Source: a bacterium (GTDB lineage: Bacteria; Bacteroidota; Rhodothermia; Balneolales; M1805). Taken from it: 64,000 nt of DNA. The stretch lies in NCBI GenBank assembly GCA_006226965.1, contig SBGQ01000018.1:605-64604 (forward strand), given 5' to 3'. Position numbers and translations under genes: made by a program. Positions 2,827-28,295 of the stretch are shown one piece after another. The notes beneath the pieces are model-generated. The model saw only the letters and a list, made by a program, of their open reading frames with translations, searched no databases and was not told where the DNA came from. Numbering within the stretch: position 1 is the first letter of the stretch; each line of letters starts with the position of its first letter.

Positions 2827-3885
2827 ATGGCAAAAGAAATTAAAGCTGAAGAACCTAAAAACGAGCGATTAAAAGCCCTTCAACTGGCAATGGATCAACT
2901 CGAAAAGCAACACGGAAAAGGTACCATCATGCGCTTAGGTGATGGAGTAAGTGTTGATGTAGATGTTATTTCAACCGGTTCTTTATCGGTGGATTATGCA
3001 TTGGGCGTTGGCGGAATTCCTCGCGGACGAATTACAGAAATCTACGGTCCAGAATCGTCCGGTAAAACGACTTTGGCTTTGCATGTAATTGCCGAAGCTC
3101 AAAAAGCAGGCGGTTATGCAGCGTTTATTGATGCGGAACATGCTTTTGATCCTAAATATGCACGGTCATTAGGTATCAAAATCGATGAATTATTAGTCTC
3201 TCAGCCTGATAGCGGTGAACAAGCTTTAGAAATTGCCGAAACCTTAATTCGTTCAGCAGCTTTAGATGTCGTAGTTATCGACTCTGTTGCGGCCTTAGTT
3301 CCAAGAGCGGAATTAGAAGGTGATATGGGGGATTCCCACATGGGTTTGCAAGCTCGTTTGATGTCTCAAGCCCTCAGAAAATTAACAGGTATTGTTAACA
3401 AAACACGCACCGCTGTAATTTTTATCAACCAAGTTCGTGATAAAATTGGTGTAATGTTTGGCAACCCGGAAACTACTACAGGTGGACGTGCACTTAAGTT
3501 TTATGCTTCTGTTCGTGTTGATATTCGCCGAGTTGGTGCTATTAAAAAAGGTGAAGATGTAATCGGTAACCGAACAAAGGTTAAAGTAGTTAAGAACAAA
3601 GTTGCACCTCCTTTCAAACAAGTAGAATTTGATATTCTATATGGTAAAGGAATTTCAAAATTGGGAGAAATCCTTGATTTGGCTGTAAATATGGACATTA
3701 TCCAAAAACGCGGATCTTGGTTCAGATATAATGGCGAACCAATTGGTCAAGGAGCAGATGCCGCCATGCAGTTCTTAGCTGAGGATCCAAGCTTATGTAA
3801 AACCGTGGAAGACGCAGTAAAAGCTCAAATGGCTGGTGTTCCAATGTTAGCTAACGATGAGGATAGCCCGTCTTCTGATGATTAA
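2827..3885 (+). CDS. recA: Recombinase RecA
   Basis: 352 aa. Walker [10 protein letters not shown], plus [13 protein letters not shown] and [22 protein letters not shown], are canonical RecA blocks. Confidence 0.97.
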
Positions 3886-3906
3886 TCGAATCGTTTGAAA
3901 AGAATT

Positions 3907-3931
3907 GGCCGCTAAATGCGGCCTTTTTTTT
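3907..3931 (+). terminator. Rho-independent terminator after recA
   Basis: GGCCGC-TAAAT-GCGGCC hairpin (3907-3923) followed by eight T (3924-3931). Confidence 0.7.
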
Positions 3932-3951
3932 AGAAAAAAGTAGTTTATCCA

Positions 3952-4638
3952 ATGCTTGTAAAAAAAATACAATTAACACCACCGGAGTCACCTGTTACTT
4001 TACCCGGAAAGATTACATCCATAACCGTTCAGTCTGTAAAGAAAGACAGATGCTCAATTTTTGTTGAAGGTGAGTTTTTAATCGGTATTGAGCAAAACTT
4101 GTTATTACAGTTTGGATTCAAAAAAGGTGAAATTGTACAGCCTGAGCATTATGAAGAATTGTGGGAGATAGAACAGCAAAACAAGGTTTTCCATTGGTTG
4201 TTAAGTCGTTTAGAGACACGAGCACACGGCAAAGAAGAACTGCGTCAAAAAGCAAAACTCAAAGGTTTTCCTAATCATTGGATTGAGCCTGCCATTCAAA
4301 AAGTTGAAAAATTAAGCTTGTTGAATGATGAACAATTTGCCAGAAGTTTCTGCAATGATAAATTTCGGTTTAAAAAATGGGGCCCTGTTAAAATAAAAGT
4401 TGAATTAAAAAAGAAGGGGATTGCTGATTCCGTGATTCAAAAAGTAGTAGCTGAATTACATCGAGAACAGGATTTTAAACAAGAAATAAATGCCTTACTT
4501 GCAAAGAGAGAGCGTCATTTTAATCGAGAATCAGATATTCAAAAGAGAAAACAAAAAATGATGAGTTATTTGGCAGGTAAAGGTTATCCCATGCAAGAAA
4601 TTATGAATGTGTTAAGAAACTTAAATTCATCAAAATAA
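3952..4638 (+). CDS. recX: RecX-family regulatory protein (long form)
   Basis: 228 aa immediately downstream of recA. The helical-repeat region (EQFARSFCNDKFRFKKWGPVKIKVELKKKGI) is typical of RecX. It also has an N-terminal extension of about 80 aa. Confidence 0.7.
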   Translation: MLVKKIQLTPPESPVTLPGKITSITVQSVKKDRCSIFVEGEFLIGIEQNLLLQFGFKKGEIVQPEHYEELWEIEQQNKVFHWLLSRLETRAHGKEELRQKAKLKGFPNHWIEPAIQKVEKLSLLNDEQFARSFCNDKFRFKKWGPVKIKVELKKKGIADSVIQKVVAELHREQDFKQEINALLAKRERHFNRESDIQKRKQKMMSYLAGKGYPMQEIMNVLRNLNSSK

Positions 4639-9784: not shown

Positions 9785-11029
9785 CTATGGGTTTCGAGTC
9801 GATCCGTTGCTGCTCACGAGCCACTTGTAGCTGGTAAGTTCGGCTAAACCCATCGGGCCGCGAGCATGTAGTTTTTGTGTGCTGATTCCGATTTCAGCGC
9901 CGAGACCGAATTGAGCACCATCGGTAAACGCCGTCGAGGTATTCACATAAACAACGGCAGCATCTACCGACTTCTGAAATAACTCCGCGTTTTCTTTATT
10001 TGCAGTGATAATAGCTTCACTGTGTTTTGATGAATAAATTGCGATATGGTCTAAAGCATCCCGCAGGTTGGCAACCGTTTTAATAGCCATTTTATAGCTC
10101 AGAAATTCTGTGCCAAAATGTGTCGCATCTGCTTTGTGCAGTAATTCATCAGGATAAACGCCGTCTAAATGGCTGAATGCCTGCTCATCTGCAAAAATTT
10201 GTACTTCATGGGAGGACATCTCGCTTACCAATTCATACAAATCAATTAAGCGAGATTCGTGGATAATCAAACAATCTAAAGCATTACAAACCGAAACTCT
10301 GCGGGTTTTTGCATTGGTGATAATTTTTGCAGCAAGCTGCAAATCTGCAGTTTCATCCACAAAGGTATGCACAATTCCGGCCCCGGTTTCAATTACAGGA
10401 ACCTTTGAATTCTCCCGGACAAAATCAATGAGCTGTTGACTCCCACGCGGAATAATGACATCGACATATTCGGTTACTTTTAAAAGCTTTTCCGTAGAAC
10501 TGCGATCACTTGGTAAAAGTTCGATTGCGTTTACCGGTAAATGATTAGCTTCTAATTCAGATTTAATGAGTTCTACAATAGCTTTATTAGAATTTTCAGC
10601 ATCGCTTCCGCCTTTTAGCAGACAAACATTCCCCGATTTTAAGCACAGAGAAAAAACATCGAAGGTGACATTCGGGCGGGCCTCGTAAATGATTCCGACA
10701 ACACCCAAAGGAACCGAAATACGTTTAATTTCCAAACCGTTTGGTAAACTGCGTTCATCCAATTCCATTCCAAGCGGTGAAGGCATCAGAGCGACTTTAC
10801 GCATATCGTTGGCAATTCCGATTAGACGCTCTGAAGTAAGCTTAAGGCGATCGAACTTAGGATCGTCTTTATCCATTCTATCTAAATCCAATTGATTGGC
10901 AGCCAATAAGATATCATGGCTTTGGTCAACTTTATCAGCTAAAAACGTTAAAAACGCACTTATCTGAGCGTTTTCAATTAACGGCAATTGTCTGGCAGCA
11001 AGTTTTGCAGATTCTAAAATTTCTTTCAT
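9785..11029 (-). CDS. proA: Glutamate-5-semialdehyde dehydrogenase
   Basis: 414 aa. [20 protein letters not shown] and [18 protein letters not shown] are ProA blocks. It overlaps proB by 4 nt. Confidence 0.93.
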
Positions 11030-12099
11030 GATTCGTTTAGATACAAATAATCGTAATGGATAAAGGCTTTTTGATTCTTTTTGCCCATCATCTCCTGAGC
11101 ACTTTCAAGATCGTAACTGGTTTTACCTAAACCTAAGATCTTTCCTTGTTCATCCAATATGCGAACAATATCGCCTTTTTTAAAATGTCCTTCGAGTTTT
11201 TTTATACCAACAGGTAACAAACTGGTGGGTTTTGCAGAAAAAAGGGCATTCTTTGCGCCGGAATCTATTACTACATCACCTTGAAATGAAGAAGTAGAAT
11301 GTGCAATCCATGTTTTTGCTGAGGACACTTTTTTAGCTGGAATAAATCGCGTGCCAAGGTCCGCTTTTTTCAATAAATCAACTAAAATAAAGTCTTTTTT
11401 ACCGTTAGCTATTTGAACTGTAATTCCAAGCTGAGCAGTTTTTTGTGCCATGGTTAATTTGGTCATCATGCCACCTCGGCCAAATTGAGATTTTCCGCTG
11501 GCTTTTACTTCAATGGATGTTTTTTGAGTTGATTTAATCTCAGAAATCAAAGTAGAATCGGCTTCACTAGGATTTCCTGTAAACACGCCATCTACATTGG
11601 TTAAGATGATTAGGGTTGATGCGCCGACCATTCCTGCAACTAAACCGGCCAATTCATCATTATCGGTAAACATCAATTCGGTTACTGAAATCACATCATT
11701 TTCATTTATAATCGGCACAACATCGCATTCAACCATATTCTGTATACAGTTTCGCATATTCAGATAATGGCGTCTATCACGGAAATCTTCTTTTGTTACG
11801 AGAATTTGTGCGCACAGTCGGTTGTATTTGCTAAAAGCTATATTGTAGGTTTCGATAAGTTTGATTTGCCCTAAAGCCGCCCAAAGTTGACGTTTACTAA
11901 TAGGGTCGAGAGTTTGCGAAGGTGACATTATTTGTCGCCCGGATGCAACTGCACCTGAGGAAATGAGCACAACTGCGTAACCCATTTCTTTCAATTGATG
12001 AATTTGTTCGACAATATGTTGAAGGCGAGCAGAGTCTAAAGTTCCGTTTTCGTTAGTTAGAACATTGGACCCGACTTTAATAACGAGGGTTTCTTGCAT
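11026..12099 (-). CDS. proB: Glutamate 5-kinase (with C-terminal PUA domain)
   Basis: 357 aa. [28 protein letters not shown] and a PUA-like C-terminus. Confidence 0.93.
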
Positions 12100-12121
12100 G
12101 GTAGATGTATAATTCTGATGA

Positions 12122-12150
12122 TTGCATAAAATACGTAAGTGAATTATATT
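12122..12150 (+). promoter_or_regulatory. Sigma-70-like promoter TTGCAT-N17-TATATT
   Basis: TTGCAT at 12122-12127 and TATATT at 12145-12150, with a 17-nt spacer. Its -10 box overlaps the divergent proBA -10 box. Confidence 0.35.
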
Positions 12151-12169
12151 TATTTAAATCGCTGCGCAA
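12143..12169 (-). promoter_or_regulatory. Possible proBA promoter (TTGCGC-N15-TATAAT)
   Basis: On the minus strand, TTGCGC lies at 12169-12164 and a perfect TATAAT at 12148-12143. The 15-nt spacing is short. Confidence 0.25.
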
Positions 12170-12258
12170 GCAGTCCCTTGTTAGCTGAGGCGCAAGGATA
12201 CTATTATTCACTTTGATTTTCAAAGTCCCCCATGATTGCGGTCATGGGGTTTTTTTTT
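12157..12258 (+). ncRNA. Candidate small structured RNA or terminator-type leader (four hairpins, then an intrinsic terminator)
   Basis: Hairpin 1 is CTGC-GCAA-GCAG, with a GNRA loop (12162-12173). Hairpin 2 is CCTTG-N12-CAAGG (12176-12197). Hairpin 3 is ACTTTG-N5-CAAAGT (12210-12226). Hairpin 4 is CCCCATGA-N6-TCATGGGG (12228-12249), followed by nine T (12250-12258). Confidence 0.35.
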
Positions 12259-12858
12259 ATGAAGAGACGTGTAATTGCATTTATTGATGGGTTTAACTTA
12301 TATCACTCTATCGCCAATTTAGCTGATAATTCTTTAAAGTGGTTGGATATTGTAAAGTTGGTTAATCGTAGTTTGTCATCAAATGATGAGTTAATAAAAG
12401 TGTGTTATTTTACAGCTTTACTTGATGATATTAACAAAAGAAATCGACATCAAAATTATATAAGAGCATTAGAAACATTACATGTAGAAGTACATTACGG
12501 AAGATTTAGATTGTCTAGCAAACGCTCGATTGATAAAGGTTGGGTAAAAGTACTTGAAGAAAAAGAAACAGATGTTAATATTGCAATTCAGATGATTCGA
12601 CTTGCATTTCAAGACCAGTATGATCAAGCTGTGTTAATTTCTGCCGATTCTGACCAAGTTCCTACACTTAAACTTATAACTACAGAATTAGGTAAAGAAG
12701 TCCGTTTACTTTTGCCTCCGAATAGTAAAGCTGATGAATTGAAAACGGTTTCAACAGTATTTGAAAGATTAACAAGAGATAAGATTGAGTCTTGCAAATT
12801 ACCCATTGAAATAGAGTTATCTTCGGGTAAAAAAATTAAAAAACCCTTGGAATGGTAA
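12259..12858 (+). CDS. NYN (LabA/PIN-like) domain protein, putative RNase
   Basis: VIAFIDGFNLYHS, EKETDVNIAIQM and ISADSDQVP are the acidic-residue blocks of NYN domains. I chose the ATG at 12259 because the longer ORF (from 12232) would begin inside the terminator hairpin. Confidence 0.65.
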   Translation: MKRRVIAFIDGFNLYHSIANLADNSLKWLDIVKLVNRSLSSNDELIKVCYFTALLDDINKRNRHQNYIRALETLHVEVHYGRFRLSSKRSIDKGWVKVLEEKETDVNIAIQMIRLAFQDQYDQAVLISADSDQVPTLKLITTELGKEVRLLLPPNSKADELKTVSTVFERLTRDKIESCKLPIEIELSSGKKIKKPLEW

Positions 12859-12922
12859 AAACGAGTAATGAAAAGATTCAAATTTTAAGGCTGTACTTTT
12901 TTTCACAAAATGAATTGTATAC

Positions 12923-13687
12923 TTAATTCTTACTATCTCCGTCGTATGTATTTGTCCAACCGACATACAACTCCCGAACCTCATTCACTTTTTCGTCCAG
13001 ATTTTCATTAGTCCAATCTTTAGTAGATATAGGCGGGTTCACATGAATAGTAATGGTTCCGCTTTTAAAGAAAAGAGAAGAGGATGGAGATAAGTTAAAA
13101 GAGTTTTCATAGTACAGCGGAACGATTGGATAACCAATGTCTTTCGCAGTGTGGAAAGCTCCTTTTTTGAATTTGCCGACTCTGTCTTCATGTTTACGAG
13201 TGCCTTCAGGAGCAATCACCAAGCTTAATTTTTTTCTGATAACACGTTCATAAGCACGTTTCAGTGATTTTACTGCTTTTTCTGATGTGCCTCGATTTAT
13301 AAAAACTTGTCCGGTTGCTAATCCGATAATCCCGAAAACCGGATTGTAAATAAGCTCATATTTTGCAACATAACGTGCGCTTTTCAATCCGACAGATAAG
13401 GTAATCGGAATATCTAAAGTCGATGTATGATTAAAGATATAAACGGCAGGCTCATCGGGAAGAGGGGCGTGAAAAATGATTTCACGTTTTATGCCCATCA
13501 AAAAGAAAGCAACAACACCAATTGTCTTTCCGAATGTGTTAATGAGCCAATTATTGAGTACACCCCAAGTAAGTAGATTAATGAGTGCAACGAGTAATCC
13601 TGCACTTATAAAAACGATTGCTAATATGAACAGAGCAAAGATTGATCTGAATTTTTCCCCAAAAGTGAATGTAGTAGTCTGAGCCAT
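12923..13687 (-). CDS. plsC: 1-acyl-sn-glycerol-3-phosphate acyltransferase
   Basis: 254 aa. It has an N-terminal TM segment, the NHTSTLD (HX4D) motif and the APEGTR motif. Confidence 0.8.
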   Translation of the reverse strand: MAQTTTFTFGEKFRSIFALFILAIVFISAGLLVALINLLTWGVLNNWLINTFGKTIGVVAFFLMGIKREIIFHAPLPDEPAVYIFNHTSTLDIPITLSVGLKSARYVAKYELIYNPVFGIIGLATGQVFINRGTSEKAVKSLKRAYERVIRKKLSLVIAPEGTRKHEDRVGKFKKGAFHTAKDIGYPIVPLYYENSFNLSPSSSLFFKSGTITIHVNPPISTKDWTNENLDEKVNEVRELYVGWTNTYDGDSKN

Positions 13688-13892
13688 GTAATTTTAAAAT
13701 GAATGCGCGTGTAATATAAACGGATTTTTTAAAACGGATTCCATTCCACATCGGCAAAAGCAAAAAGAAGAGCTGATTTTTTGAGAGAAAATGTAAAATT
13801 TACAGTAAAAGATGCGTTCAATCAAAAATAGAAAAGCGCTTTTCTTGTTCAATCGAATTATATTTGCGCCGAAATTAAAGGAAGAGTTTACC

Positions 13893-14990
13893 ATGAAATT
13901 TGCCGTAGTACCAGAACATATCAGAGATTTGCAGCCATATAAAGCAGGAAAAACATTGCAAGAGGTATTGGATGTGTATAAGCCTGAACGTATTGCAAAA
14001 CTTGCATCAAATGAAAACAGAATGGGTTGCAGCCCGGCTGCGTTAAAAGCTGCGCAAGATACATTTGGTCAAATCATGAATTATCCCGACCCAAGTTCCA
14101 GAGCATTACGAGCGGAAATTGCAAAAATGCACGGAATAAAGCCGGAAAATGTAATTGCCGGAAATGGTTCAGAAGGAGTAATGAGTTTAATAACCAGAAC
14201 TTTTTTTAAAGACACCGACCAAGCTCTGACAGCTGCCGGTACATTCATCGGATTTTGGGTGTTGATTAATTCCCGAGGCGTAAAATTGGTGAAAGTGCCG
14301 CTTACTCAAAACTATGCGTTCGATTTACAAGCCTTAGCTGATGCAATCACGGAAGAAACCAGAGTTGTTTATTTGGCAAATCCTAATAACCCAACCGGTA
14401 CATATTTCACAAAGCAGGAATTTGAATGGTTTATGACTCAGGTTCCCGAACATGTACTCGTAATTATGGATGAAGCCTATTACGAATATGCAAAAGATGA
14501 ACCAAATTATCCGGATTCAATGAGATACAGAATGGATAATGTGATTACACTCCGAACATTTTCAAAAGGATATGGCTTAGCGGGATTCCGAGTCGGTTAC
14601 GGAATGGCACACGAAGATTTAATCGGAAATCTAATGAAAGTAAAATTGCCGTTCGAGCCGGGTTCTCCCTCACAAGCTGCTGCATTGGCTGCATTAAGAG
14701 ATACGGAATTCATTGAGCGTTCTGTTGAATTAGTACTTCGGGGAAAAGAACGCTTATATGCGTTTTTAGATAAAAAAGGTATGAACTATGTTAAATCAGC
14801 CTCAAATTCAGTGATGATGGTATTCGATAATGAAAATGACGCTGCACATTTCACAGATAAGATGTTAGAGCGTGGAGTTGTTCTCAGACATTTGCCGGCC
14901 TTTGGCATCCCAGAAGGAGTTCGAATAACAATTGGTTTAGAAGAAGATATGACTCAGTTTGAATGGGCGTTTGAGCAGGTTGTGAAGTAA
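13893..14990 (+). CDS. hisC: Histidinol-phosphate aminotransferase (class II aminotransferase)
   Basis: LASNENRMGCSP, NPNNPTG, and TFSKGYGLAGFRVGY with the PLP lysine. I chose the ATG at 13893 because the upstream 27 codons look non-coding. Confidence 0.8.
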   Translation: MKFAVVPEHIRDLQPYKAGKTLQEVLDVYKPERIAKLASNENRMGCSPAALKAAQDTFGQIMNYPDPSSRALRAEIAKMHGIKPENVIAGNGSEGVMSLITRTFFKDTDQALTAAGTFIGFWVLINSRGVKLVKVPLTQNYAFDLQALADAITEETRVVYLANPNNPTGTYFTKQEFEWFMTQVPEHVLVIMDEAYYEYAKDEPNYPDSMRYRMDNVITLRTFSKGYGLAGFRVGYGMAHEDLIGNLMKVKLPFEPGSPSQAAALAALRDTEFIERSVELVLRGKERLYAFLDKKGMNYVKSASNSVMMVFDNENDAAHFTDKMLERGVVLRHLPAFGIPEGVRITIGLEEDMTQFEWAFEQVVK

Positions 14991-15112: not shown

Positions 15113-16168
15113 ATGATGGAAGTGTTAGAGTATGCATTAAAAGTCTCTTCGATTTTTATTTTTGGTGCGCTGGTTATTTATTGGGTGAACGGGAAGAATA
15201 TCGTAATGCGATTTGTGTCGTTCGCTATACCGCTTTCCTTTATAGCCATGATTATAGTTTACGCGGTGCATGTTCAATTTCAAGGAGATTTTTGGGCGGG
15301 AATAATCGGATACGGTTTGTTTGTGCTGAGCGCATTTTTAGCCTTAGAGGGTTTGGGAAGATTTTTGATGAAACGGGTAATGCAGCAATTAAAAAAGATT
15401 TCAACTTCTACAGAATCATTAAACAAAAGCATTAGTCAGAATTCGAATCGGACTACTCAGATGAGCCATTCCTACATGCGTCAGGCATCAGAAATTAAGC
15501 AGGTAAAGCATATGCTGGATCAAATGAATGAAGCATCACAAAAGAATATTTCACTGGTCGGTAAAAACACAAAGTTAACGATGGAAATTGCCGGAAAAGC
15601 AAAAGATGTTGAACGTGCATCTGAACAGGTTCAAACGGCCATAAGTAATATGGAAACAAGTGTTAATGAAATTTCTAAGATTGTGAATTCCATACAAAGC
15701 ATTGCGTTTCAAACCAATTTATTGGCCTTGAATGCATCAGTTGAAGCAGCTAGAGCCGGAGCTGCCGGAACAGGATTTGCGGTTGTAGCTGAAGAAGTAC
15801 GTAACCTGGCATTAAAAGCATCGGAAGCGGCATCAAACACACAACAAATTATTGATCAAAATTTGGGCGATATCCATAAAGGAATTGAGTCGGCACAAAC
15901 AATGTATGAGTTGTTTAAGAATTTAAATTCGAATGTATTACAAACAAAAGAAGTAGCTGAGCAAGTGGCTCATATTTCCGGAGAGCAGACGGAATGGGTA
16001 AAAAACGGACATCATGGAATTGAAGTCATTTTTCCGATGATACAACAAGGAGTACAGGGCGCAGAAGAAACATTAAAAGACAATCGCCAGATTGAGAGTA
16101 ATATGCAGGAATTGAGTTCCGGATTAGATGATTTGTATACAGTTGTGAGAGGTTTTTCGAAGAGATAG
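15113..16168 (+). CDS. Methyl-accepting chemotaxis protein (short; two N-terminal TM segments)
   Basis: The highly conserved signalling hairpin [37 protein letters not shown] is present. Confidence 0.85.
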
Positions 16169-16183
16169 ATAAAAACTAATAAA

Positions 16184-16220
16184 AAAAGCCGCTTTATTTA
16201 AGATAAAGCGGCTTTTTTTG
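16184..16220 (+). terminator. Bidirectional rho-independent terminator (MCP gene / tRNA)
   Basis: AGCCGCTTTAT (16187-16197) pairs with ATAAAGCGGCT (16203-16213). It is flanked by an A-run upstream and a T-run downstream. Confidence 0.7.
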
Positions 16221-16294
16221 TGGGCCCAGAGGGACTTGAACCCCCGACCAATCGATTATGAGTCGACTGCTCTAACCGACTGAGCTATGGGCCC
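16221..16294 (-). tRNA. tRNA with CAT anticodon (elongator Met, or tRNA-Ile2 read after lysidine modification)
   Basis: The reverse complement is GGGCCCATAGCTCAGTCGGTTAGAGCAGTCGACTCATAATCGATTGGTCGGGGGTTCAAGTCCCTCTGGGCCCA. It forms a cloverleaf with a 7-bp acceptor stem, a GTTCAAGTC T-loop and a CTCATAA anticodon loop. Confidence 0.9.
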
Positions 16295-16507: not shown

Positions 16508-19003
16508 ATGTTTAAAAGTAATGCGTTCTCAATTTTGTTTAAACTAGTATTTAGTTTAGGGTTTGTCGTTCAGGTTTCAGCGCAGTCTGCTTCGGTAACG
16601 TTTCGCGTAAATATGAGCAATTCTATTCGACAAGGTTTGTTTGATGAGAAAACAGAGTTTGTGGATGTTGCCGGAAGCTTTAATAATTGGGGAAACACGC
16701 TTCTAAAGCTCACTAAAGGGGAAAATGATTCTATTTATTATCGAACAGTTACCGGATTTACGGTAGGTCAATCTTTTGAGTTTAAATTTAGGATAAACGG
16801 TCAATGGCTTGGCAGAGAAGAGTTTTCGGGCGGCGGTGATAATCGGAAGTTTACAGTTTCTAAAACGCAGGATTCTTTATTGGTTTGGTATAATGATGAG
16901 GAACCGAAAATCGGTCCGCCGATAAGTTCATTTAGCGCCTTAACGACCGATTTGGTTGTCGGGCAACAAATTGTATTTACGAATACATCAAGCGGAAATA
17001 TTGATTCTTTTCAATGGGATTTTGAAGGCGGAATTCCGGCTACATCAACAGAAAAAAATCCACTGGTTGCTTATCCACAAGCCGGGACATATTCTGTGAG
17101 ACTTATCGCATCAAATGAAGGCGGAGAAGCCGATACCTTGTTGATGGAAGAGTATATCTCGGTATCAAACACAAAAGAATCCTTAGCAAAATGGTGGAAC
17201 GACCGTGTGTTTTATGAAATTTTTGTGCGCAGTTTTTACGATTCTGACGGCGATGGAATCGGGGATATAAACGGAATAATCGAAAAGTTAGATTATTTGA
17301 ATGATGGCGATCCGAACACAAAAGATGATTTGGGAATCGGCGGAATCTGGCTTATGCCTGTAAATCCGTCGCCCAGTTATCACGGTTACGACGTTACGAA
17401 TTACAAAGAAATTAACCCGCAATACGGAACTTTGGATGATTTCAAACGCTTAGTTCAGGAAGCGCATAATCGGGGAATTGCCATAATTATTGATTATGTC
17501 ATGAATCACACTTCAACCGAGCATCCTTGGTTTCAACAATCAAAGAATAATAATCCAACATATCGAGATTATTATGTGTGGAGCGCAACAAATCCGGCTA
17601 CTGTAGGTCCGTGGGGGCAAGATGTTTGGCACAGTTCGAACGGTAGTTATTATTACGGAATTTTTTGGGGAGGAATGCCTGATTTGAACTATTCGAACGA
17701 GGCAGTGAAAGATAGTATGTTTGATGCGGCTTCATTTTGGATTAATGAAACAGGAGTTGATGGTTTCAGGCTTGATGCGGTAAAATACATTTTCGAAGAC
17801 GGTTCCATTATGGAAGATTTACCGGCTACGCATGAGTTCTTCGGTGATTTTTCTGCGCACATTAAACAAGATAATCCTGATGTATTTACCGTCGGTGAAG
17901 CTTGGACATCAACCGAGAAAGTGCTTGAATACGTAATTCCGAACCGAATAGACTATTGTTTCGAATTTGATGTAGCGGAATCTATTCTGCAAAGTGTGTT
18001 GGATGCAAATACAACATCAATGCGTAAGGCGTTTACGAATGCCTATTATTCGTATCCTGATAAACAGTTTGGTGTGTTTTTAACCAATCATGACCAAAAT
18101 CGGGTGAATAATGTGCTTTTAGATTCCATTCCGATGAATAAGGTGGCGGCATCGATGTATTTAACCCTTCCTGGCGTTCCATATCTCTATTACGGTGAGG
18201 AAATCGGGATGAGCGGACTTAAACCGGATGAATATATTCGTACTCCGATGATGTGGAATGCGTCTTCAAATGCAGGTTTTACTACCGGAAATCCGTGGTT
18301 GAGAGTAAATTCAGAATACAGCAAAAAGAATGTGGCGAGTTTATCGGATGACAGCAACTCTCTTTTCTCTCATTATAGAAATTTGATTCAAGCGAGAAAT
18401 ACATTTGCAGAATTACGCAGAGGTAACTTTACTTTTTTCCCGACTGATGATGATGAAATAGTGGTTTATAGCCGTTCAACACAGGTTTCAAACGTAGATT
18501 CAACACTAATGGTGTTAATAAATGTGAGCTCAAACAGTATGTATGATGCTGTTATTCATCCGATTGGTATAGATACAGAGATTCTGAATTATCAATTAGA
18601 AGATGTCATAACAGGAAAGAAAATAAACTTGGTTTCTAATGGTGACGGAAGTTATTCCTTGCCTGTTTTAGAAGCGTACGAAACTATAATCGCAAGAGCG
18701 GTGCCAATAACTGTCGCGATTGAACCACCCCAAAAAGCAAGTCGATTTGAGTTGTATCAGGCTTATCCGAATCCGTTTAATCCAAGTACAACGCTTTCCT
18801 TTCACTTAGACAAAGCAAGTGATGTACGTTTATGTGTGTATGATGCGCTTGGAAGAGAAGTACAACGGTTGCTTCAAGAACCCATGCAAGCAGGTTTTCA
18901 TAAAATTACGTTTGATGCGAGTACGTTGGCAAGCGGAGTATATATGTATCAATTACGAACTGCTTCTGGTGTGTTAACTCAAAAAATGACCTTGTTGAAG
19001 TAA
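16508..19003 (+). CDS. Secreted GH13 alpha-amylase-family glycosidase with an N-terminal carbohydrate-binding beta-sandwich, a PKD domain and a T9SS C-terminal sorting domain
   Basis: It has a signal peptide and all four GH13 regions: DYVMNHTS, GFRLDAVKY, VGEAW and FLTNHDQNR. The PKD-like segment is WDFEGG...GTYSVRLIASN. The C-terminal tail is YPNPFNPSTTLSF...GVYMYQL...KMTLLK. Confidence 0.9.
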   Translation: MFKSNAFSILFKLVFSLGFVVQVSAQSASVTFRVNMSNSIRQGLFDEKTEFVDVAGSFNNWGNTLLKLTKGENDSIYYRTVTGFTVGQSFEFKFRINGQWLGREEFSGGGDNRKFTVSKTQDSLLVWYNDEEPKIGPPISSFSALTTDLVVGQQIVFTNTSSGNIDSFQWDFEGGIPATSTEKNPLVAYPQAGTYSVRLIASNEGGEADTLLMEEYISVSNTKESLAKWWNDRVFYEIFVRSFYDSDGDGIGDINGIIEKLDYLNDGDPNTKDDLGIGGIWLMPVNPSPSYHGYDVTNYKEINPQYGTLDDFKRLVQEAHNRGIAIIIDYVMNHTSTEHPWFQQSKNNNPTYRDYYVWSATNPATVGPWGQDVWHSSNGSYYYGIFWGGMPDLNYSNEAVKDSMFDAASFWINETGVDGFRLDAVKYIFEDGSIMEDLPATHEFFGDFSAHIKQDNPDVFTVGEAWTSTEKVLEYVIPNRIDYCFEFDVAESILQSVLDANTTSMRKAFTNAYYSYPDKQFGVFLTNHDQNRVNNVLLDSIPMNKVAASMYLTLPGVPYLYYGEEIGMSGLKPDEYIRTPMMWNASSNAGFTTGNPWLRVNSEYSKKNVASLSDDSNSLFSHYRNLIQARNTFAELRRGNFTFFPTDDDEIVVYSRSTQVSNVDSTLMVLINVSSNSMYDAVIHPIGIDTEILNYQLEDVITGKKINLVSNGDGSYSLPVLEAYETIIARAVPITVAIEPPQKASRFELYQAYPNPFNPSTTLSFHLDKASDVRLCVYDALGREVQRLLQEPMQAGFHKITFDASTLASGVYMYQLRTASGVLTQKMTLLK

Positions 19004-22904: not shown

Positions 22905-25900
22905 TTATTTCAGTAAAGTCATTTTCTTCACATCAACTACTTGGTTATCTATGGTGAGTCGATACAGATAAACACCACTCGCAAGTTGCATGCCATTAAA
23001 ATTAGTTGTGTGATATCCTGCGTCAAATGCACTATTTACAAGGGTTGAAATTTTTCTGCCAAGTATATCGAACACTTCGAGGCGAACATGAGCCGGTTTG
23101 GTGACGGCAAAACGCAACACGGTTGTTGGGTTAAACGGATTCGGGAAGTTATCAAATAAGAAAGGTTGTTCCGGAAGAACGTGTTTTTCAACCAATTCTC
23201 TGGTTCCGATATAGGCTTTAAATACTCTTTCTTTAGAAGCATCCAACCATTTTAATGAATCGCCCGGCTCTAATACTTTGTACATATCGTTACTAACTAA
23301 AGCAAGAACATGGGTGTCATTAAACATATTTCCGCTCCAGCTGATTTTGCGATGGCCTTTTGGAATCACAATTTCTCTGTAAGAATTAACAAAGTCTTCA
23401 TCTGTAAAAGCAAGCGGCTGTGCATCTGTTGTAAGTGCCACACCATCGCCTTTAATGTAAGCCGGCAGCGTTTTGATATCAGGCGCTGATGGTAAAAGCG
23501 GTTCATCAAATTCATCAAACTCAGAAATCGCTGAACTTCTGTTCACTAAACGTAGCCATTCATTATCAATAATAATGTCTGATAATAGTTGAAACTCATC
23601 TGGAAGTGCTTGTTTTAATGGAACATCTGAATTCATTGAAGTTGGCGTAACCGTGTCGAGACTCAAGGTTACAGTTGCGTTACTACTCGAATAAACTAAA
23701 TAACCACCCCAAGGTTTGAGCTTTTCAGTAGTTTGAACCGTTGTCCAGTTTTGTGAAACAGCAGAGAACTTCCACATTTTAACTGTACTTAAATTCGCAG
23801 ACCAACTCACTTCTGTTTCGTAAGGGTTTGCAATGAATCTATAGTTATTAAAATTGATAGAGAAGGTTCGATTTGTCATTCGACTACCTGCACCTGTTTG
23901 CAGTTCAAATTTTTGATCTAAACCAAGAGTTTTGAACCACAACGATTTACCTGTTCCGAATACCGGTCCAGCTTCCTCAGAAACATCATAATATTCACCG
24001 CTAGTATTCATATCGAATAACCTGTAATCTTTTCCCGGGATGATATCAGCAAATAAATCTGCCGGTGCGGTATTAATACCTGTTCCGGGAATGGATAACA
24101 ACGTCCAGTTTTTTACAATAATTCCATCTGAATAAGCAGATACTGCGGAATTTGAACTTTGTGTAGAAAACGCTTGGGTTTTTACTGTTACGTTTATGGT
24201 AAGTACGGAAGATTCTGTTGTCGCATCTTGAGCTTTAACGGTTACAGAAGTTTCGCCTTCACTAAATGCTGTAATTGTAAGCGAGTTATTTACGGAGTTA
24301 GCGGCAATGTTTGCTACAGAAGGGTTATTGGATGAGGTTTGGTAAGTCATAGATTCACCATTATCATCTGTAAATAAACTATTCAGCGTATAAATAGCAG
24401 AATTTCCGCCTAAAACAAGAACCACATCAGCAATATTTCCGGTTATTCTCGGGCGTGCATTCACATAAATGTTAAACGCCGAAGAATTTGTTTTTCCGCC
24501 CGGATCTTGAGCGGTTACCGTAAGTGTAGTTGAACCGGCAGCCGTTCCTGTAATCAAAATTTTGTTATTTCCAGAGTTATAAGAACCTCCGGCAATTGAC
24601 GGATTATCAGCAGTGATGGAATAGGTGAGCACATCGCCGTCAGGGTCGCTGAAGTAAACGCTTGGGTCAAGCTGAATGGCAGCATCACCGAGATTAATCG
24701 ATTGATTCGGTATTACAGATAGAACACTTGGTGCACGATTTTCACGAGGTCCTACAGTAACTACAAACTCGTTTTCTGCTTCGGCTTTGCCGTCGGATGC
24801 GGTTACTTTTACAGTAATACTTCCCAATGCAATTGGTTTAATTATTAAAGTTGAACCGTTGGCAATAGAGATTTCTGCAACAGATGGGTTCGGATTGTTA
24901 GTTGAATAACTCAACACATCACCGGCATCAGGGTCATCAAAAACAGTAGTAAGATTGATGGTTGTTGAATCGTCAGCCACACGAGTTTCAACAGTTGCTA
25001 TTGGTGATGCAACTCGAGGAGTGTAATTATCCGGTGCGTTTACATAAACGATGAAGTTTGTACTCACTACACCGCCACGGTCGTCATCTGCAGTTACGGT
25101 GATGGTTGTGTTGCCGATGGCATTGGGAGTGATACTAAATAATTTATTTACCGCATCTGATACACTAGCAACAGATGGTTTACTTGATAAGACCGTGTAA
25201 GACAAGTCGTTACCATCAGCATCAGAAAAAGTTGAAGTTAAATCGATGTTTTGAGGTGAATCCGTTAATCTTAAATCTAAGTCATCTAAAACATTGGCAA
25301 CCACAGGAGCTGAGTTTGTAGAAACACTGATGTTTTTCAGAATTTGGATTTTTGGCTGACTGGAAGGGTAAATCATATAAACCACATCCAAATCACCGTC
25401 TTTATCAACATCAATCAACTTGGGGAATGATTTTGTTGTTGAGTTATTTGATAAATCGGATTTTTTTGAGAATAGATTATCTGTGTAAGTGTAGTAATTT
25501 AAGTATGTGCTGGTACTTGATACTACATCTAATCTTCCGTTATTATCAAGGTCACCAACATCTAAACCTCCAACTTCAGAACCGCTCGGTACACTAAATG
25601 TGATACCGTTAGAAAGATACCCCGGGTCTGCAGTTATATCATTGAAAAAGTAACCAACTGTATTAAAGCTATAACCAATTACATCAATTTTATTATTGCG
25701 AGTAAAATCATCAAAAATGAATGTATGATAATATCCTGGTCTGTAAAACGTGTTCTCATGTTGGAAGAAATCAGAAATCGAATTATTGGTACCAACATAT
25801 AATTTGCCGTTATTATTTGTAGAGCTGGCTACTACCATATCTAGTAATCCATCTCCTGTTACATCTACAGGGGTTACATCATAAGCCTGCTGTGTGGAAG

Positions 25901-28295
25901 TAACCGCATTTGAAATATTAAACGTACCTGCGTTGTTTTTAATAATCATGATAGTTGATGTAGTTGTATAACTTGGTACTACAATTTCAGGGTAACCATC
26001 GTAATCAAAGTCGGCAAATTTAACATTGTCAACAAATGCGTAAACCGTTGTTTCTAATACATCTTCCAAGCTAAAGGTACCTGCTCCGTTATTCTTGTAT
26101 AGATAGATTTGAGCGGTTTTGTTTGGGCTGGTATCATAAATATTGGTTGCATACACATGGAAAATTCCAATATCTGTGCTTCCGTCTTTATTGTAATCAC
26201 CAAGAAATAAACTAATTCTATGAAATGCTCCTGATGAGGAATTGGTTATTCCTCGAAAACGAACCATATCTGGATAATTTCCATTGCCATCATTGAAATA
26301 CACAAAAACGGAATCGACGGTGTTTCCGTAGTTCATTAAAGCAACTAAGTCAATATCATTATCTCCGTCTAAATCGCCTGCTTGAAAAGACTTCCCATAA
26401 TAAGTTGTGTTTGCTGTGTTTAGAGTGAGTTCAGCGGCCGTTTCAAAAGTGGTTCCACCGTTTGAAACCTGTACTCGATAATGTGTTGAGTACGGAAGAA
26501 CGGTAACTCCCTCTTGAGAAATGTAAGTCGAGTTAATACTTAGAGTCACTTTTTCATTGGCTAAAAGTGATTTTATCGGTTTTATAACCAATACACTGTC
26601 GTTCGATTGAGCAGTTATTTGAAGAGAAAGATTACCTCTCAAATTCGAAACCAGACTCACATTGGTAGAATTAAATGAGTTGTTTACAAACTTTCCGCTA
26701 AAGGAGACAGTGATTTGATCCGTTGCACGCATTTTATTTTCGTAGGGACTCGGGCTGGTTCCTATAACATGTAAGGGCGTTACAACATCAATATCGGTCA
26801 AATTTAATTGTGGAAGATTCGCAGAAATTGATTGCAAGCCTGTTGAGCCGTATGGTGTAATTGCTGCCCCAAGTTTTGTTGTTGAACTCGGTATTAATTT
26901 AGCCTCATAATTCCCGGCTTCTAAAGCTTGAAACGTAAATAAGCCATAATCTTCTGTGGTATCATTTTTTACCCAAACATCATCTTTATACAAACTAATA
27001 ATTCTGTTGGGTTCAAAATTTCCATCTTTCCATACTTGCCCTTGAAAATCTCGTTGATTAGCTATTGTTATGGGCGCAGGAGTCGGCACACCCCACTGCT
27101 CGGTAGCGTCTTTTGTTCGAACATAAATCGCGTGGGAGCCGATTGATTGAGTGAGTGTAACCAATGCTCTTGCATCAACCGTAGTTGAATCATAAAATCC
27201 GGTTAAGGTAACAGGCTGTAAATCCATTCCTTGTCCATCAGATGGGTGTTTTGCCCCGGAAAAGAAATATTCCACATCGGTTATATTTTGTGATTCTGTT
27301 AGAGCTTTAGGAATAAATACTAAACGTGATGTATAATTTCCCCAAGTTCCGCTTTCATCCTTCAAACGAAAGTAGAATCGATTAAATCCCGTTTGAAAAC
27401 CATCAAGTGAAATATCTAATTGTTCTGTTAATGTTGCCGAAGGTTCAACATCTATTACATTTCCTGCACCAAAAGCCGGTCTGTTTCCAGAGAAGTATTC
27501 AAGTTGGTTGATTTTTGAAAGTACACGTTCTTCCGGTTGATAGACTGAAAACCCTCTTGGAATTCCCCATGTATTATCAGAATCTTTAAATCTGAAAAAC
27601 AGGCGATGGAATCCCGCTTCACTTGGAGCATCAACTTGCGTATCTGTAATTGTTGCTAATCCGGTTTCCATGGAACCCGCCGCTTCTACCGCTATTCCGG
27701 TTCCCGGTTGACCCAAATCATCATAAAAATATTCTGCACCTGAAATCGGGGAGATGGTTTTTGTATCTGGTACATAAAACAATCTGGATGCATAATTTCC
27801 CCAAGTACCAAAGTTATCCTGAACCCGCACATAAGCTTTATGAAAACCTGGAGTTAAATTAGTGCTTTCTAAATCTATTTCTTTTTCAATTGAAACTACT
27901 TCGCCAGGATTTACACTTGCTGATATACCTGCACCGAATTCCACATTTCCGTTAAAAAAGATTTCGGCATTTGAAACCGTTTTTTCCGGAATCTCCGCCG
28001 GTTTATAGAACACTCTGCGTAATGGAATGCCCCACAATCCATCGGCATCTTTAAATCGAATATATAAAGCATGAAAACCAACACTTAACTGATCAACATC
28101 AATTTCAACATTATCTATAAATGCTTTTTCAATGGATGTATTTACCACAACGGATATACCGTTGCCGGAACCCGGGTCGGTATCAAAAAAATACTCCGCT
28201 GCGGTTATGCTAACAGGCGGGGCAAGTTCCTGTGCTGTAAGCCTTGCTGTTAGTAGCAAGAAGCAAGCCGTTAGAATTATCTTGAAATTTTTCAT
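22905..28295 (-). CDS. Giant secreted surface protein: 5 novel N-terminal repeats, a CarboxypepD_reg-like domain, 7 FG-GAP/VCBS-like repeats, 4 cadherin-like Ig modules and a T9SS C-terminal sorting domain
   Basis: 1796 aa with signal peptide MKNFKIILTACFLLLTARLTAQ. The seven D-x-D/N-x-D-G-x-x-D loops include GDLDGDNDIDLV and IDVDKDGDLDVV. Four repeats of about 100 aa carry F(S/T/D)D(A/P/D)DG.(D/V/S)L(S/T)Y. The tail is FPNPFNPTTVLRF...GVYLYRL...KMTLLK. Confidence 0.85.
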   Translation of the reverse strand: MKNFKIILTACFLLLTARLTAQELAPPVSITAAEYFFDTDPGSGNGISVVVNTSIEKAFIDNVEIDVDQLSVGFHALYIRFKDADGLWGIPLRRVFYKPAEIPEKTVSNAEIFFNGNVEFGAGISASVNPGEVVSIEKEIDLESTNLTPGFHKAYVRVQDNFGTWGNYASRLFYVPDTKTISPISGAEYFYDDLGQPGTGIAVEAAGSMETGLATITDTQVDAPSEAGFHRLFFRFKDSDNTWGIPRGFSVYQPEERVLSKINQLEYFSGNRPAFGAGNVIDVEPSATLTEQLDISLDGFQTGFNRFYFRLKDESGTWGNYTSRLVFIPKALTESQNITDVEYFFSGAKHPSDGQGMDLQPVTLTGFYDSTTVDARALVTLTQSIGSHAIYVRTKDATEQWGVPTPAPITIANQRDFQGQVWKDGNFEPNRIISLYKDDVWVKNDTTEDYGLFTFQALEAGNYEAKLIPSSTTKLGAAITPYGSTGLQSISANLPQLNLTDIDVVTPLHVIGTSPSPYENKMRATDQITVSFSGKFVNNSFNSTNVSLVSNLRGNLSLQITAQSNDSVLVIKPIKSLLANEKVTLSINSTYISQEGVTVLPYSTHYRVQVSNGGTTFETAAELTLNTANTTYYGKSFQAGDLDGDNDIDLVALMNYGNTVDSVFVYFNDGNGNYPDMVRFRGITNSSSGAFHRISLFLGDYNKDGSTDIGIFHVYATNIYDTSPNKTAQIYLYKNNGAGTFSLEDVLETTVYAFVDNVKFADFDYDGYPEIVVPSYTTTSTIMIIKNNAGTFNISNAVTSTQQAYDVTPVDVTGDGLLDMVVASSTNNNGKLYVGTNNSISDFFQHENTFYRPGYYHTFIFDDFTRNNKIDVIGYSFNTVGYFFNDITADPGYLSNGITFSVPSGSEVGGLDVGDLDNNGRLDVVSSTSTYLNYYTYTDNLFSKKSDLSNNSTTKSFPKLIDVDKDGDLDVVYMIYPSSQPKIQILKNISVSTNSAPVVANVLDDLDLRLTDSPQNIDLTSTFSDADGNDLSYTVLSSKPSVASVSDAVNKLFSITPNAIGNTTITVTADDDRGGVVSTNFIVYVNAPDNYTPRVASPIATVETRVADDSTTINLTTVFDDPDAGDVLSYSTNNPNPSVAEISIANGSTLIIKPIALGSITVKVTASDGKAEAENEFVVTVGPRENRAPSVLSVIPNQSINLGDAAIQLDPSVYFSDPDGDVLTYSITADNPSIAGGSYNSGNNKILITGTAAGSTTLTVTAQDPGGKTNSSAFNIYVNARPRITGNIADVVLVLGGNSAIYTLNSLFTDDNGESMTYQTSSNNPSVANIAANSVNNSLTITAFSEGETSVTVKAQDATTESSVLTINVTVKTQAFSTQSSNSAVSAYSDGIIVKNWTLLSIPGTGINTAPADLFADIIPGKDYRLFDMNTSGEYYDVSEEAGPVFGTGKSLWFKTLGLDQKFELQTGAGSRMTNRTFSINFNNYRFIANPYETEVSWSANLSTVKMWKFSAVSQNWTTVQTTEKLKPWGGYLVYSSSNATVTLSLDTVTPTSMNSDVPLKQALPDEFQLLSDIIIDNEWLRLVNRSSAISEFDEFDEPLLPSAPDIKTLPAYIKGDGVALTTDAQPLAFTDEDFVNSYREIVIPKGHRKISWSGNMFNDTHVLALVSNDMYKVLEPGDSLKWLDASKERVFKAYIGTRELVEKHVLPEQPFLFDNFPNPFNPTTVLRFAVTKPAHVRLEVFDILGRKISTLVNSAFDAGYHTTNFNGMQLASGVYLYRLTIDNQVVDVKKMTLLK

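Follow-up and report, generated by a model that had tools for sequence, protein, structure and literature searches.

An apparently undescribed, conserved structured RNA directly upstream of NYN-domain genes

An RNA element abutting an NYN gene

A 64,000-nt stretch of DNA from a bacterium of the Balneolales (lineage M1805; NCBI GenBank assembly GCA_006226965.1, contig SBGQ01000018.1, positions 605 to 64,604), here called the window, carries on its plus strand a short intergenic element that abuts the ATG of a gene for an NYN-domain protein. The element (12156-12258 in window coordinates, ~103 nt) consists of an AAAUC leader, four consecutive hairpins (P1 to P4) and a run of nine U (Table 1), and it lies in the gap (12100-12258) between the start of proB on the minus strand and the plus-strand NYN open reading frame (ORF). 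An earlier note, made from the sequence alone, had described hairpins, a terminator and a U-tract running into the ATG, and had remarked that no plus-strand gene upstream needs a terminator. All of these features are present at the places it gave, RNAfold agrees with the hairpins, and the gene map of the window bears out the remark.

RNAfold gives exactly four hairpins for the window RNA (-34.2 kcal/mol), with a centroid identical to the minimum-free-energy (MFE) structure. The statistics of this single-sequence fold are modest (z = -3.2 against dinucleotide shuffles, with 2/200 shuffles equally stable), and it is the comparative evidence that is decisive. Simple hairpins are capped by extra-stable GNRA or UNCG tetraloops, and the bulged hairpin P2 is flanked by U on its 5′ side and AU on its 3′ side. 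P4 together with U9 is the sole terminator-like site that a terminator scan finds in 11000-14000 (9 pairs, of which 5 are G-C; a 4-nt loop; 9 U). As a GC-rich stem-loop followed by a U-tract on the transcribed strand, it is predicted from its sequence to be an intrinsic (Rho-independent) terminator. There are 0 nt between the U-tract and the ATG, which leaves no room for a separate NYN promoter, and transcription of NYN must therefore come from terminator read-through; the dependence on read-through raised in the earlier note is sound.

The probable promoter of the RNA is a Bacteroidota-type -7 box, TATATTTA, which overlaps the TATATT of the earlier note. Boxes resembling TAnnTTTG, words that are common in AT-rich DNA, lie 11-13 nt upstream of the first modelled RNA base in 6/9 members of the window clade defined below, and the match is perfect (6/6) in loci L082 and L085. 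We consider this box more likely to be the relevant promoter element; transcription would probably begin near ~12156. The near-consensus sigma-70 promoter proposed earlier does not hold up: its TTGCAT agrees with TTGACA at 3/6 positions and falls below the promoter-scan threshold, and promoter-like matches occur at chance level in the scanned AT-rich region (11 found, 10.8 expected). On the other strand, the proB promoter must lie either within the RNA gene or past it, and a sigma-70-like match (TTGAAA-17-TATCCT) is present there at 12195-12223 (-); divergent transcription of proBA and of the RNA may therefore overlap.

An alignment of 15 NYN homologues places the NYN start at 12259 and not at 12232. 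The N-terminal extension that would begin at ATG 12232 was rejected as unconserved among homologues; the ATGs inside P4, which give the 208-aa product of gene callers, are in frame only in the window sequence and are likewise unconserved. Comparison across related loci revealed no conserved ORF or leader peptide within the RNA. There is indeed no space for a ribosome-binding site ahead of the ATG, as had been pointed out, yet this is no anomaly. Only 5/33 ATG-start ORFs of the window are preceded by a Shine-Dalgarno-like tetramer, so a missing ribosome-binding site before NYN is normal for this genome.

The protein encoded behind the RNA matches the Pfam NYN family PF01936 (E = 9.7e-15; 55.8 bits against a cut-off of 24.2) and, over positions 2-202 of 203, the PADLOC profile HEC-09 (PDLC04163; E = 4e-49). 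Four aspartates, D10, D105, D130 and D132, are invariant in the 15 homologues. A sequence search of the PDB returned no match for the window protein; its AlphaFold2 model (pLDDT 93) has as best Foldseek hits VPA0982 (2QIP) and the MARF1 NYN domains 5YAA and 6FDL. Profile matches and the modelled fold thus identify a predicted MARF1/LabA-like NYN ribonuclease (RNase) of the candidate defence family HEC-09. In the accessible text of Payne et al. (bioRxiv 10.1101/2024.01.29.577857), HEC-09 is proposed as a defence candidate on the ground that it is embedded in Hma systems, and its fold is likewise given as MARF1-like NYN. Sequence-nonspecific, Mn-dependent cleavage of single-stranded RNA is described for a different stand-alone NYN protein from bacteria (bioRxiv 10.1101/2024.04.08.588522), so uncontrolled NYN expression might plausibly do harm. 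Across the compared loci no conserved protein-coding partner gene lies beside NYN, and hence there is no candidate for a protein antitoxin.

At gathering thresholds, Rfam 15 finds only a tRNA in the whole window (16221-16294) and nothing at the RNA element; the earlier note had not recognised the sequence as SRP RNA, 6S RNA, tmRNA or a known riboswitch. A permissive scan of 11900-12500 gives a best score of 22 bits against thresholds of 39-100, with matches driven by the terminator; L10_leader, for example, reaches 20.6 bits where its gathering threshold is 44, with hardly anything but the terminator aligned. In 36 NYN loci, Rfam reports only tRNA and plasmid RNAI, elsewhere in the loci. A full-text search of 7.7 million PMC papers and of bioRxiv, which leaves most subscription journals outside, returned no paper linking NYN, LabA, DUF88 or HEC-09 to type III systems, to RNA antitoxins or to a structured RNA upstream. 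The NYN-associated structured RNA is real and conserved, and it is apparently undescribed.

Table 1. Features of the RNA-NYN module and of its surroundings in the window.
Feature	Position	Strand	Remarks
TTGCAT, proposed -35	12122-12127	+	weak match, probably an irrelevant element
Probable promoter -7 box, TATATTTA	12145-12152	+	5/6 specified positions of Bacteroidota TAnnTTTG; 11 nt before RNA start
AAAUC leader	from 12156	+	5′ end of modelled RNA
P1 hairpin (H1 of putative unit 1)	12161-12174	+	G.U and CUGC/GCAG, GCAA tetraloop
P2 bulged hairpin (H2 of putative unit 1)	12176-12197	+	CCCUUGU/GCAAGG, UA bulge, inner GC/GC, UGAG loop
Linker (leader of putative unit 2)	12198-12209	+	A/U-rich, single-stranded; unpaired in MFE and consensus folds
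P3 hairpin (H1 of putative unit 2)	12210-12226	+	ACUUUGA/UCAAAGU, UUU loop
P4 hairpin (H2 of putative unit 2; predicted terminator stem)	12228-12249	+	CCCCAUGAU/GUCAUGGGG, 9 bp, UGCG tetraloop closed by U.G
U-tract, U9 of predicted terminator	12250-12258	+	read from sequence; 0 nt to NYN ATG
Predicted NYN ribonuclease gene	12259-12858	+	199 aa; ATG at 12259
proB	11026-12099	-	start faces the RNA element
Methyl-accepting chemotaxis protein signalling domain	15113-16168		
tRNA-Met (CAT) gene	16220-16294	-	
Alpha-amylase gene	16508-19003	+	831 aa; PKD domains and C-terminal sorting domain of the type IX secretion system (T9SS)
Very large ORF	22905-28295	-	1,796 aa

Conservation and covariation of the RNA

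The closest relatives of the window RNA form a clade of nine sequences: the window itself and loci L082, L083, L085, L088, L090, L127, L197 and L198. Contig look-up places the RNA directly 5′ of the closest NYN homologues in L082, L083, L085, L088, L090, L197 and L198, a covariance model (R1) recovers it in the viral contig L127, and a diverged form is found in L091 and L199. R1 was seeded with three co-linear sequences, and the other members were re-aligned to it; MAFFT was unable to place P1 or generic units in structural register, which R1 seeding solved for the window clade only. The model scores 121.9 bits in the window and 37-119 bits upstream of NYN in the 8 other loci, with a maximum of 21 bits across 791 kb of unrelated loci. 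The NYN proteins encoded behind the same RNA share only 44-80% identity.

Neighbouring genes change at every locus while the RNA and NYN stay together. The module is flanked by proBA and an acyltransferase gene in the window, by DUF2914 and an AIR-synthase-like (AIRS-domain) gene in L083, by a Zc3h12a-type RNase and an oxidoreductase in L085, and by an integrase island in L090. The RNA and NYN are thus co-inherited through unrelated neighbourhoods, and across phyla.

The proposed pairings are strongly preserved among the nine sequences: in an alignment fitted to the model and made of sequences that share descent, 99.2% of 238 cells hold standard pairs, and 17/28 pairs show changes on both sides. 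Compensatory pairs occur in every helix, 0/500 shuffles attain any of five measures, and pairing falls to 29-45% when the partners are slid by 1-3 columns. RNAalifold independently predicts the identical four helices. Since G.U pairs are frequent, and given the U-tract, the strand is fixed as plus; these features rule out an RNA read from the reverse strand. The earlier note had said that its idea would fail if the hairpins were neither conserved nor covarying; both conservation and covariation are present, and its general idea of a novel structured RNA gains support from them as well as from the absence of an Rfam family.

The helices differ in how they vary. All 5 pairs of P1 change, 4 of them with compensatory double changes, and 100% of its cells are paired. 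Compensatory changes affect 4/8 pairs of P2, 3/7 pairs of P3 (mostly via L127) and 6/8 modelled pairs of P4, which again has 100% of cells paired. P3 is optional, being present in 7/9 members and absent from L085 and L090. The U-tract after the last hairpin is kept in 8/9 members; L127 has only four U. Other conserved features are the AUC leader, the U/CCC junction and the UA bulge, and the linker of L083 and L198 carries AUCAAC, which resembles the 5′ leader AUCAACGC of L085 and L090.

P2 is the most sequence-conserved element. L083, L085 and L090 agree at every position of a 26-nt segment (100% identity), unlike their NYN proteins, which are only 55-57% identical. Such identity at this level of protein divergence argues for sequence-specific recognition, beyond the mere need for a stable stem, and makes P2 a candidate protein-recognition site. 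A degenerate P2 pattern gave 0 matches in viral contigs; its 21 matches in metagenome contigs were read as chance in GC-rich coding DNA, with only the AT-rich L097 ambiguous. This segment, near the end of JGI contig Ga0315289_10049094 (L097, 5107-5188), contains a P2-like hairpin, CCCUUGUUGGAUGAGGCGCAAGG, and scores 21 bits with R1. Neither a P1 nor a terminator is recognisable there, and the contig stops short of any gene; the segment may be a chance match or a degenerate orphan copy.

G+C is 0.348 in 12001-14000, against ~0.38 in the whole window, which places this region among the lowest 2-kb bins. Such a value would fit acquisition of the NYN module by insertion between proBA and the acyltransferase gene. 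In L085, a contig of a Gracilimonas metagenome-assembled genome, a gene for a second PIN-like RNase (384 aa, RNase_Zc3h12a domain) lies at 2970-4124 beside a helix-turn-helix (HTH) gene. It is on the strand opposite to the NYN module and ~900 nt upstream of it; the region may be a nuclease-rich defence island. Downstream in the window, the chemotaxis signalling domain, the tRNA-Met gene, the amylase and the very large ORF are listed in Table 1. To our knowledge a methyl-accepting chemotaxis signalling domain is unusual for Bacteroidota, and it occurs here in an otherwise Bacteroidota-like genome (T9SS cargo, few Shine-Dalgarno sequences). The closest GTDB relatives of ProB, from Sphingobacteriales and Cytophagales (52-58% identity), likewise suggest a host in the Bacteroidota/FCB group.

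Leaders across the wider NYN family

A protein search with the window NYN returned 1,685 homologues. At 25-40% identity, relatives occur in 396 plasmid records (PLSDB), on 89 IMG/VR contigs and in 3/50,697 GenBank phage records. We surveyed the leaders of ~70 non-redundant NYN loci (69 or 71, depending on the measure). A sense-strand terminator-like hairpin lies within 150 nt upstream in 46/69 loci, compared with 1.2% of dinucleotide shuffles, 0/69 coding controls and 6/69 antisense strands, and the distance from this hairpin to the first conserved NYN codon has a median of 23.5 nt (range 0-79 nt). Upstream regions are also unusually stable, with a median fold-energy z of -3.2 and 81% of values below -2. 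Together with occurrence on plasmids and IMG/VR contigs, the integrase adjoining L090 and the Zc3h12a-type RNase near L085 give the family a mobile or defence context.

Beyond the terminator, a recurring unit of two hairpins joined by at most 3 nt, with CCC at the junction, is found in 38/71 loci, against 3.8% of shuffles and 1/71 coding controls. The CCC junction made this descriptor discriminating; a generic descriptor of adjacent hairpins was discarded as too unspecific (88% of real regions, 40% of shuffles, 39% of coding controls). A second model, R2, built from P3-P4, finds homologous hairpin pairs 5′ of NYN in the GC-rich L124 (E = 2e-5) and in the L115 group (E = 2e-4), although re-alignment to R2 misplaced H1 of the latter. 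In several loci of the wider family, R1 and R2 match at the correct place and on the correct strand.

Unit architecture varies among relatives. Three tandem UCAUCCC-H1-N-CCC-H2 units precede NYN in L142, L144, L150 and L166, with U's after only the last unit, and in L144 and L166 the H2 copies are spaced by 50-52 nt within degenerate repeats of 29-34 nt (69-76% identity). Two covarying units plus a separate terminator are present on 3.5-kb ColE1-type plasmids of E. coli, and analogous leaders occur on plasmids of Leptospira, Methylobacterium, Klebsiella, Xanthomonas and Thermus. In L091 and L199 there are two successive hairpins, each followed by a U-run. By analogy of layout, we infer that the window RNA comprises two units, P1-U-P2 and P3-U-P4, in each of which H2 starts with CCC and which each follow an AUC-like leader.

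Besides RNAI and Rop, nothing but an HTH gene and NYN is annotated as cargo on the E. coli plasmids. The plasmid type was found in 12/5,426 complete E. coli genomes. In L195 (plasmid pPK8568-3kb, NZ_CP080131.1, 1098-1416; RNA at about 1250-1400, NYN at 1417-2142), and similarly in L196, an intergenic region separates the NYN module from a divergent HTH gene; in L195 this region contains the long perfect palindromes GTTACTACCTAACTACTCTTAATATAAGAGTAGTTAGGTAGTAAC and GGATGACATAAATGTCATCC, which, judged by their sequence, are possible operators of the HTH protein.

Two further leader forms were observed. L126, L128, L134, L136 and L172 have two hairpins 5 nt from the ATG in an upstream region of ~110 nt (in each locus at about 1390-1500). 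What may be a small upstream ORF reads MNKTFFKLICDNIPAFNLIATAINRAS in L134 and MVKTAFKLTNGNIPICHLVATATNRVLRMGARIL in L126, and substitutions between these two loci are compensatory in the hairpin (UUAAUAGC/GCUAUUAA versus UUAGUAGC/GCUACUAA); the element could act as a peptide, as an RNA or as both. A second leader type precedes another NYN subfamily, represented by L203 (a Klebsiella IncF/IncR plasmid), L204 (Xanthomonas pXAC47), L170, L171, L173, L176 and L177; this subfamily includes 207 Klebsiella and 55 Xanthomonas plasmid records. Its leaders open with CAC(C/U)ACUC and form a single long, irregular hairpin whose AUUAAGUU-like loop is conserved; an A-rich spacer and a strong terminator of its own complete the leader, which has no match in Rfam.

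Possible functions and relation to known systems

Our best single explanation, which we put forward tentatively and as somewhat less than probable, is that the RNA is an antitoxin-like partner of the NYN nuclease, the two forming a module (12145-12858) analogous to type III toxin–antitoxin (TA) loci. A Bacteroidota-type promoter would drive a ~103-nt non-coding RNA made of two units of the form hairpin, one nucleotide, CCC-hairpin (P1-P2 and P3-P4). Most transcripts would end at 12250-12258, yielding a discrete ~100-nt RNA, and NYN would be translated only from rare read-through RNAs, in which P4 sits 9 nt ahead of the ATG and would be an additional obstacle to initiation; the RNA would thereby be in large excess over the nuclease. 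NYN would recognise its own RNA, chiefly via the bulged P2, and be held inactive or titrated by it. If transcription were shut off, a phage infected or the element were lost, the supply of RNA would drop and the nuclease would be freed. A wider proposal, of which we are less confident still, is that NYN/HEC-09 genes across phyla constitute an unrecognised class of RNA-protein TA or abortive-infection systems, in which an NYN RNase would be checked by 1-3 co-transcribed, terminator-gated two-hairpin units.

Several observations weigh against the interpretation of the RNA as an antitoxin-like partner. A purely cis-acting leader would explain everything established here equally well. The two halves of the window RNA share no detectable sequence and the RNA contains no direct repeats, Tandem Repeats Finder (minimum score 30) reports nothing in window positions 12050-12320, in L144 or in L166, and R2 does not detect P1-P2, so that the two-unit view of the window RNA is drawn from architecture. 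Unit number ranges from 1 to 3 among relatives, and many loci have a single unit. The L126/L134/L136/L172 clade is without a U-tract, and the possible small upstream ORF there spans the hairpins. The pair counts, too, carry the qualification stated with them. Finally, in the only published test of a HEC-09 gene, a representative cloned together with its native upstream region and assayed in E. coli conferred no protection against the phages tested, and the accessible text of the preprint reports no toxicity for it (bioRxiv 10.1101/2024.01.29.577857).

A cis-acting operator and passive insulation account for the data nearly as well as an antitoxin-like partner does. In the former, NYN would bind or cleave the hairpins of its own mRNA and so tune termination, translation or stability, the short RNA being a by-product. 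The element always lies in the 5′ leader, at the short distances from the first conserved NYN codon given above, the sequence-specific conservation of P2 suits a protein operator, and hairpins 5 nt from the ATG without a U-tract, as in the L126/L134 clade, suit control of translation over control of termination. In eukaryotes, recognition of stem-loops is known for NYN/PIN RNases of the Regnase/ZC3H12 family, and Regnase-1 reportedly targets its own mRNA. A strong constitutive terminator without competing pairing would, however, yield mostly short RNA, which is wasteful for an operator, and two or three copies of a unit are more typical of stoichiometric RNA partners. We regard a purely cis-acting role as rather unlikely, while noting that it and an RNA partner are mutually compatible. 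Passive insulation, in which a constitutive attenuator keeps a harmful nuclease low and shields the 5′ end of the mRNA with no specific recognition, would be served by simple hairpins with extra-stable tetraloops, by the double hairpins of L091 and L199 with their two U-runs, and by the family-wide presence of terminator-like hairpins 5′ of NYN. It is improbable, as it leaves the identity of P2, the AUC leader, the U/CCC junction and the UA bulge unexplained, and the hairpin pair is retained even in the clade without a U-tract.

The earlier note had also entertained a riboswitch-like attenuator and an independent RNA. A small-molecule riboswitch or classical attenuator, with P1-P3 as sensor and P4 as expression platform, would agree with a structured leader and terminator directly before a gene, and in some distant relatives (L151, L163) an antiterminator is conceivable, since the 3′ arm of H1 is similar to the H2 5′ arm. 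In the window clade nothing competes with P4: the centroid is the MFE structure and the consensus has four independent helices. Neither a multi-helix junction nor a pseudoknot is conserved, and there is no group of invariant unpaired nucleotides. The dispensability of P3, a modular unit number of 1-3, the lack of a leader peptide and the lack of an Rfam riboswitch match likewise make this reading highly improbable. A trans-acting, base-pairing small RNA that sits beside NYN by accident of inheritance could have its own promoter, its own terminator and a length of ~100 nt, as here, but is scarcely credible when NYN adjoins the RNA in 8/8 related loci outside the window despite unrelated neighbours, analogous leaders precede NYN in other phyla, and the single-stranded stretches that could serve as seeds are the least conserved parts. 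The RNA is therefore not free-standing. That AT-rich intergenic DNA happens to fold next to an ordinary terminator would agree with the modest z of -3.2 and with promoter-like and terminator-like sites at chance numbers. We count this as refuted by the conservation and compensatory changes in nine sequences, by the family-wide enrichment over shuffled and coding controls, and by the absence of an upstream plus-strand gene to which a terminator could belong.

Should the RNA prove to be a functional partner of the nuclease, a new RNA family would be added to the catalogue, and HEC-09, a widespread and uncharacterised candidate defence family regarded as single-gene, would turn into a system of two components, RNA and protein. 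The type III TA principle would then extend to an unrelated nuclease fold, in what would be the first type III-like system with an NYN toxin and with structural rather than sequence repeats. Cloned NYN genes would have to be judged both with and apart from their leader, for which the E. coli 3.5-kb ColE1-type plasmids of the same architecture offer a tractable system. Even as a cis-acting leader, the element would represent a new and phylogenetically broad class of regulatory RNA for a nuclease family of largely obscure bacterial biology.

Among known systems, type III TA loci (ToxIN, CptIN, TenpIN) are the closest in layout: they consist of a promoter, an RNA, a terminator that sets the ratio of RNA to toxin, and an endoribonuclease gene (Blower et al. 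2012, PMC3401426). The gene order here is identical, with the predicted endoribonuclease gene 0-50 nt after the terminator; the RNA of this family is built from units of about 45-55 nt, 1-3 per locus; and plasmid and defence contexts occur with no protein antitoxin gene. The differences concern both partners. The fold of ToxN has been likened to the endoribonucleases Kid and MazF (PMC3401426), whereas the nuclease here is, by its model, NYN/PIN-like and outside the ToxN/CptN/TenpN structural class. Its RNA units repeat in structure but have little or no identity in sequence, so that Tandem Repeats Finder does not see them, and they are plain hairpin pairs in place of the ToxI pseudoknots. The element therefore cannot be filed as type III: it shares the terminator of that class, and neither its sequence repeats nor its toxin fold. 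Our proposal is that it may act in a similar manner.

With HEC-09 the window protein shares a full-length profile match, a predicted MARF1-like NYN fold and conserved aspartates; the family is described as a single protein gene, and an upstream RNA is unmentioned in the accessible text of the source (bioRxiv 10.1101/2024.01.29.577857). Protein-binding attenuation leaders, such as those of ribosomal proteins, likewise place a structured 5′ leader and an intrinsic terminator directly before the regulated gene; the window RNA differs in having neither a ribosomal context nor an antiterminator alternative. Regnase-1/ZC3H12A has an added CCCH zinc finger and 3′ untranslated region targets and is not part of a terminator-gated module, but it too pairs an NYN/PIN-like RNase with a specific stem-loop, and it thus offers a lead as to how NYN might read P2.

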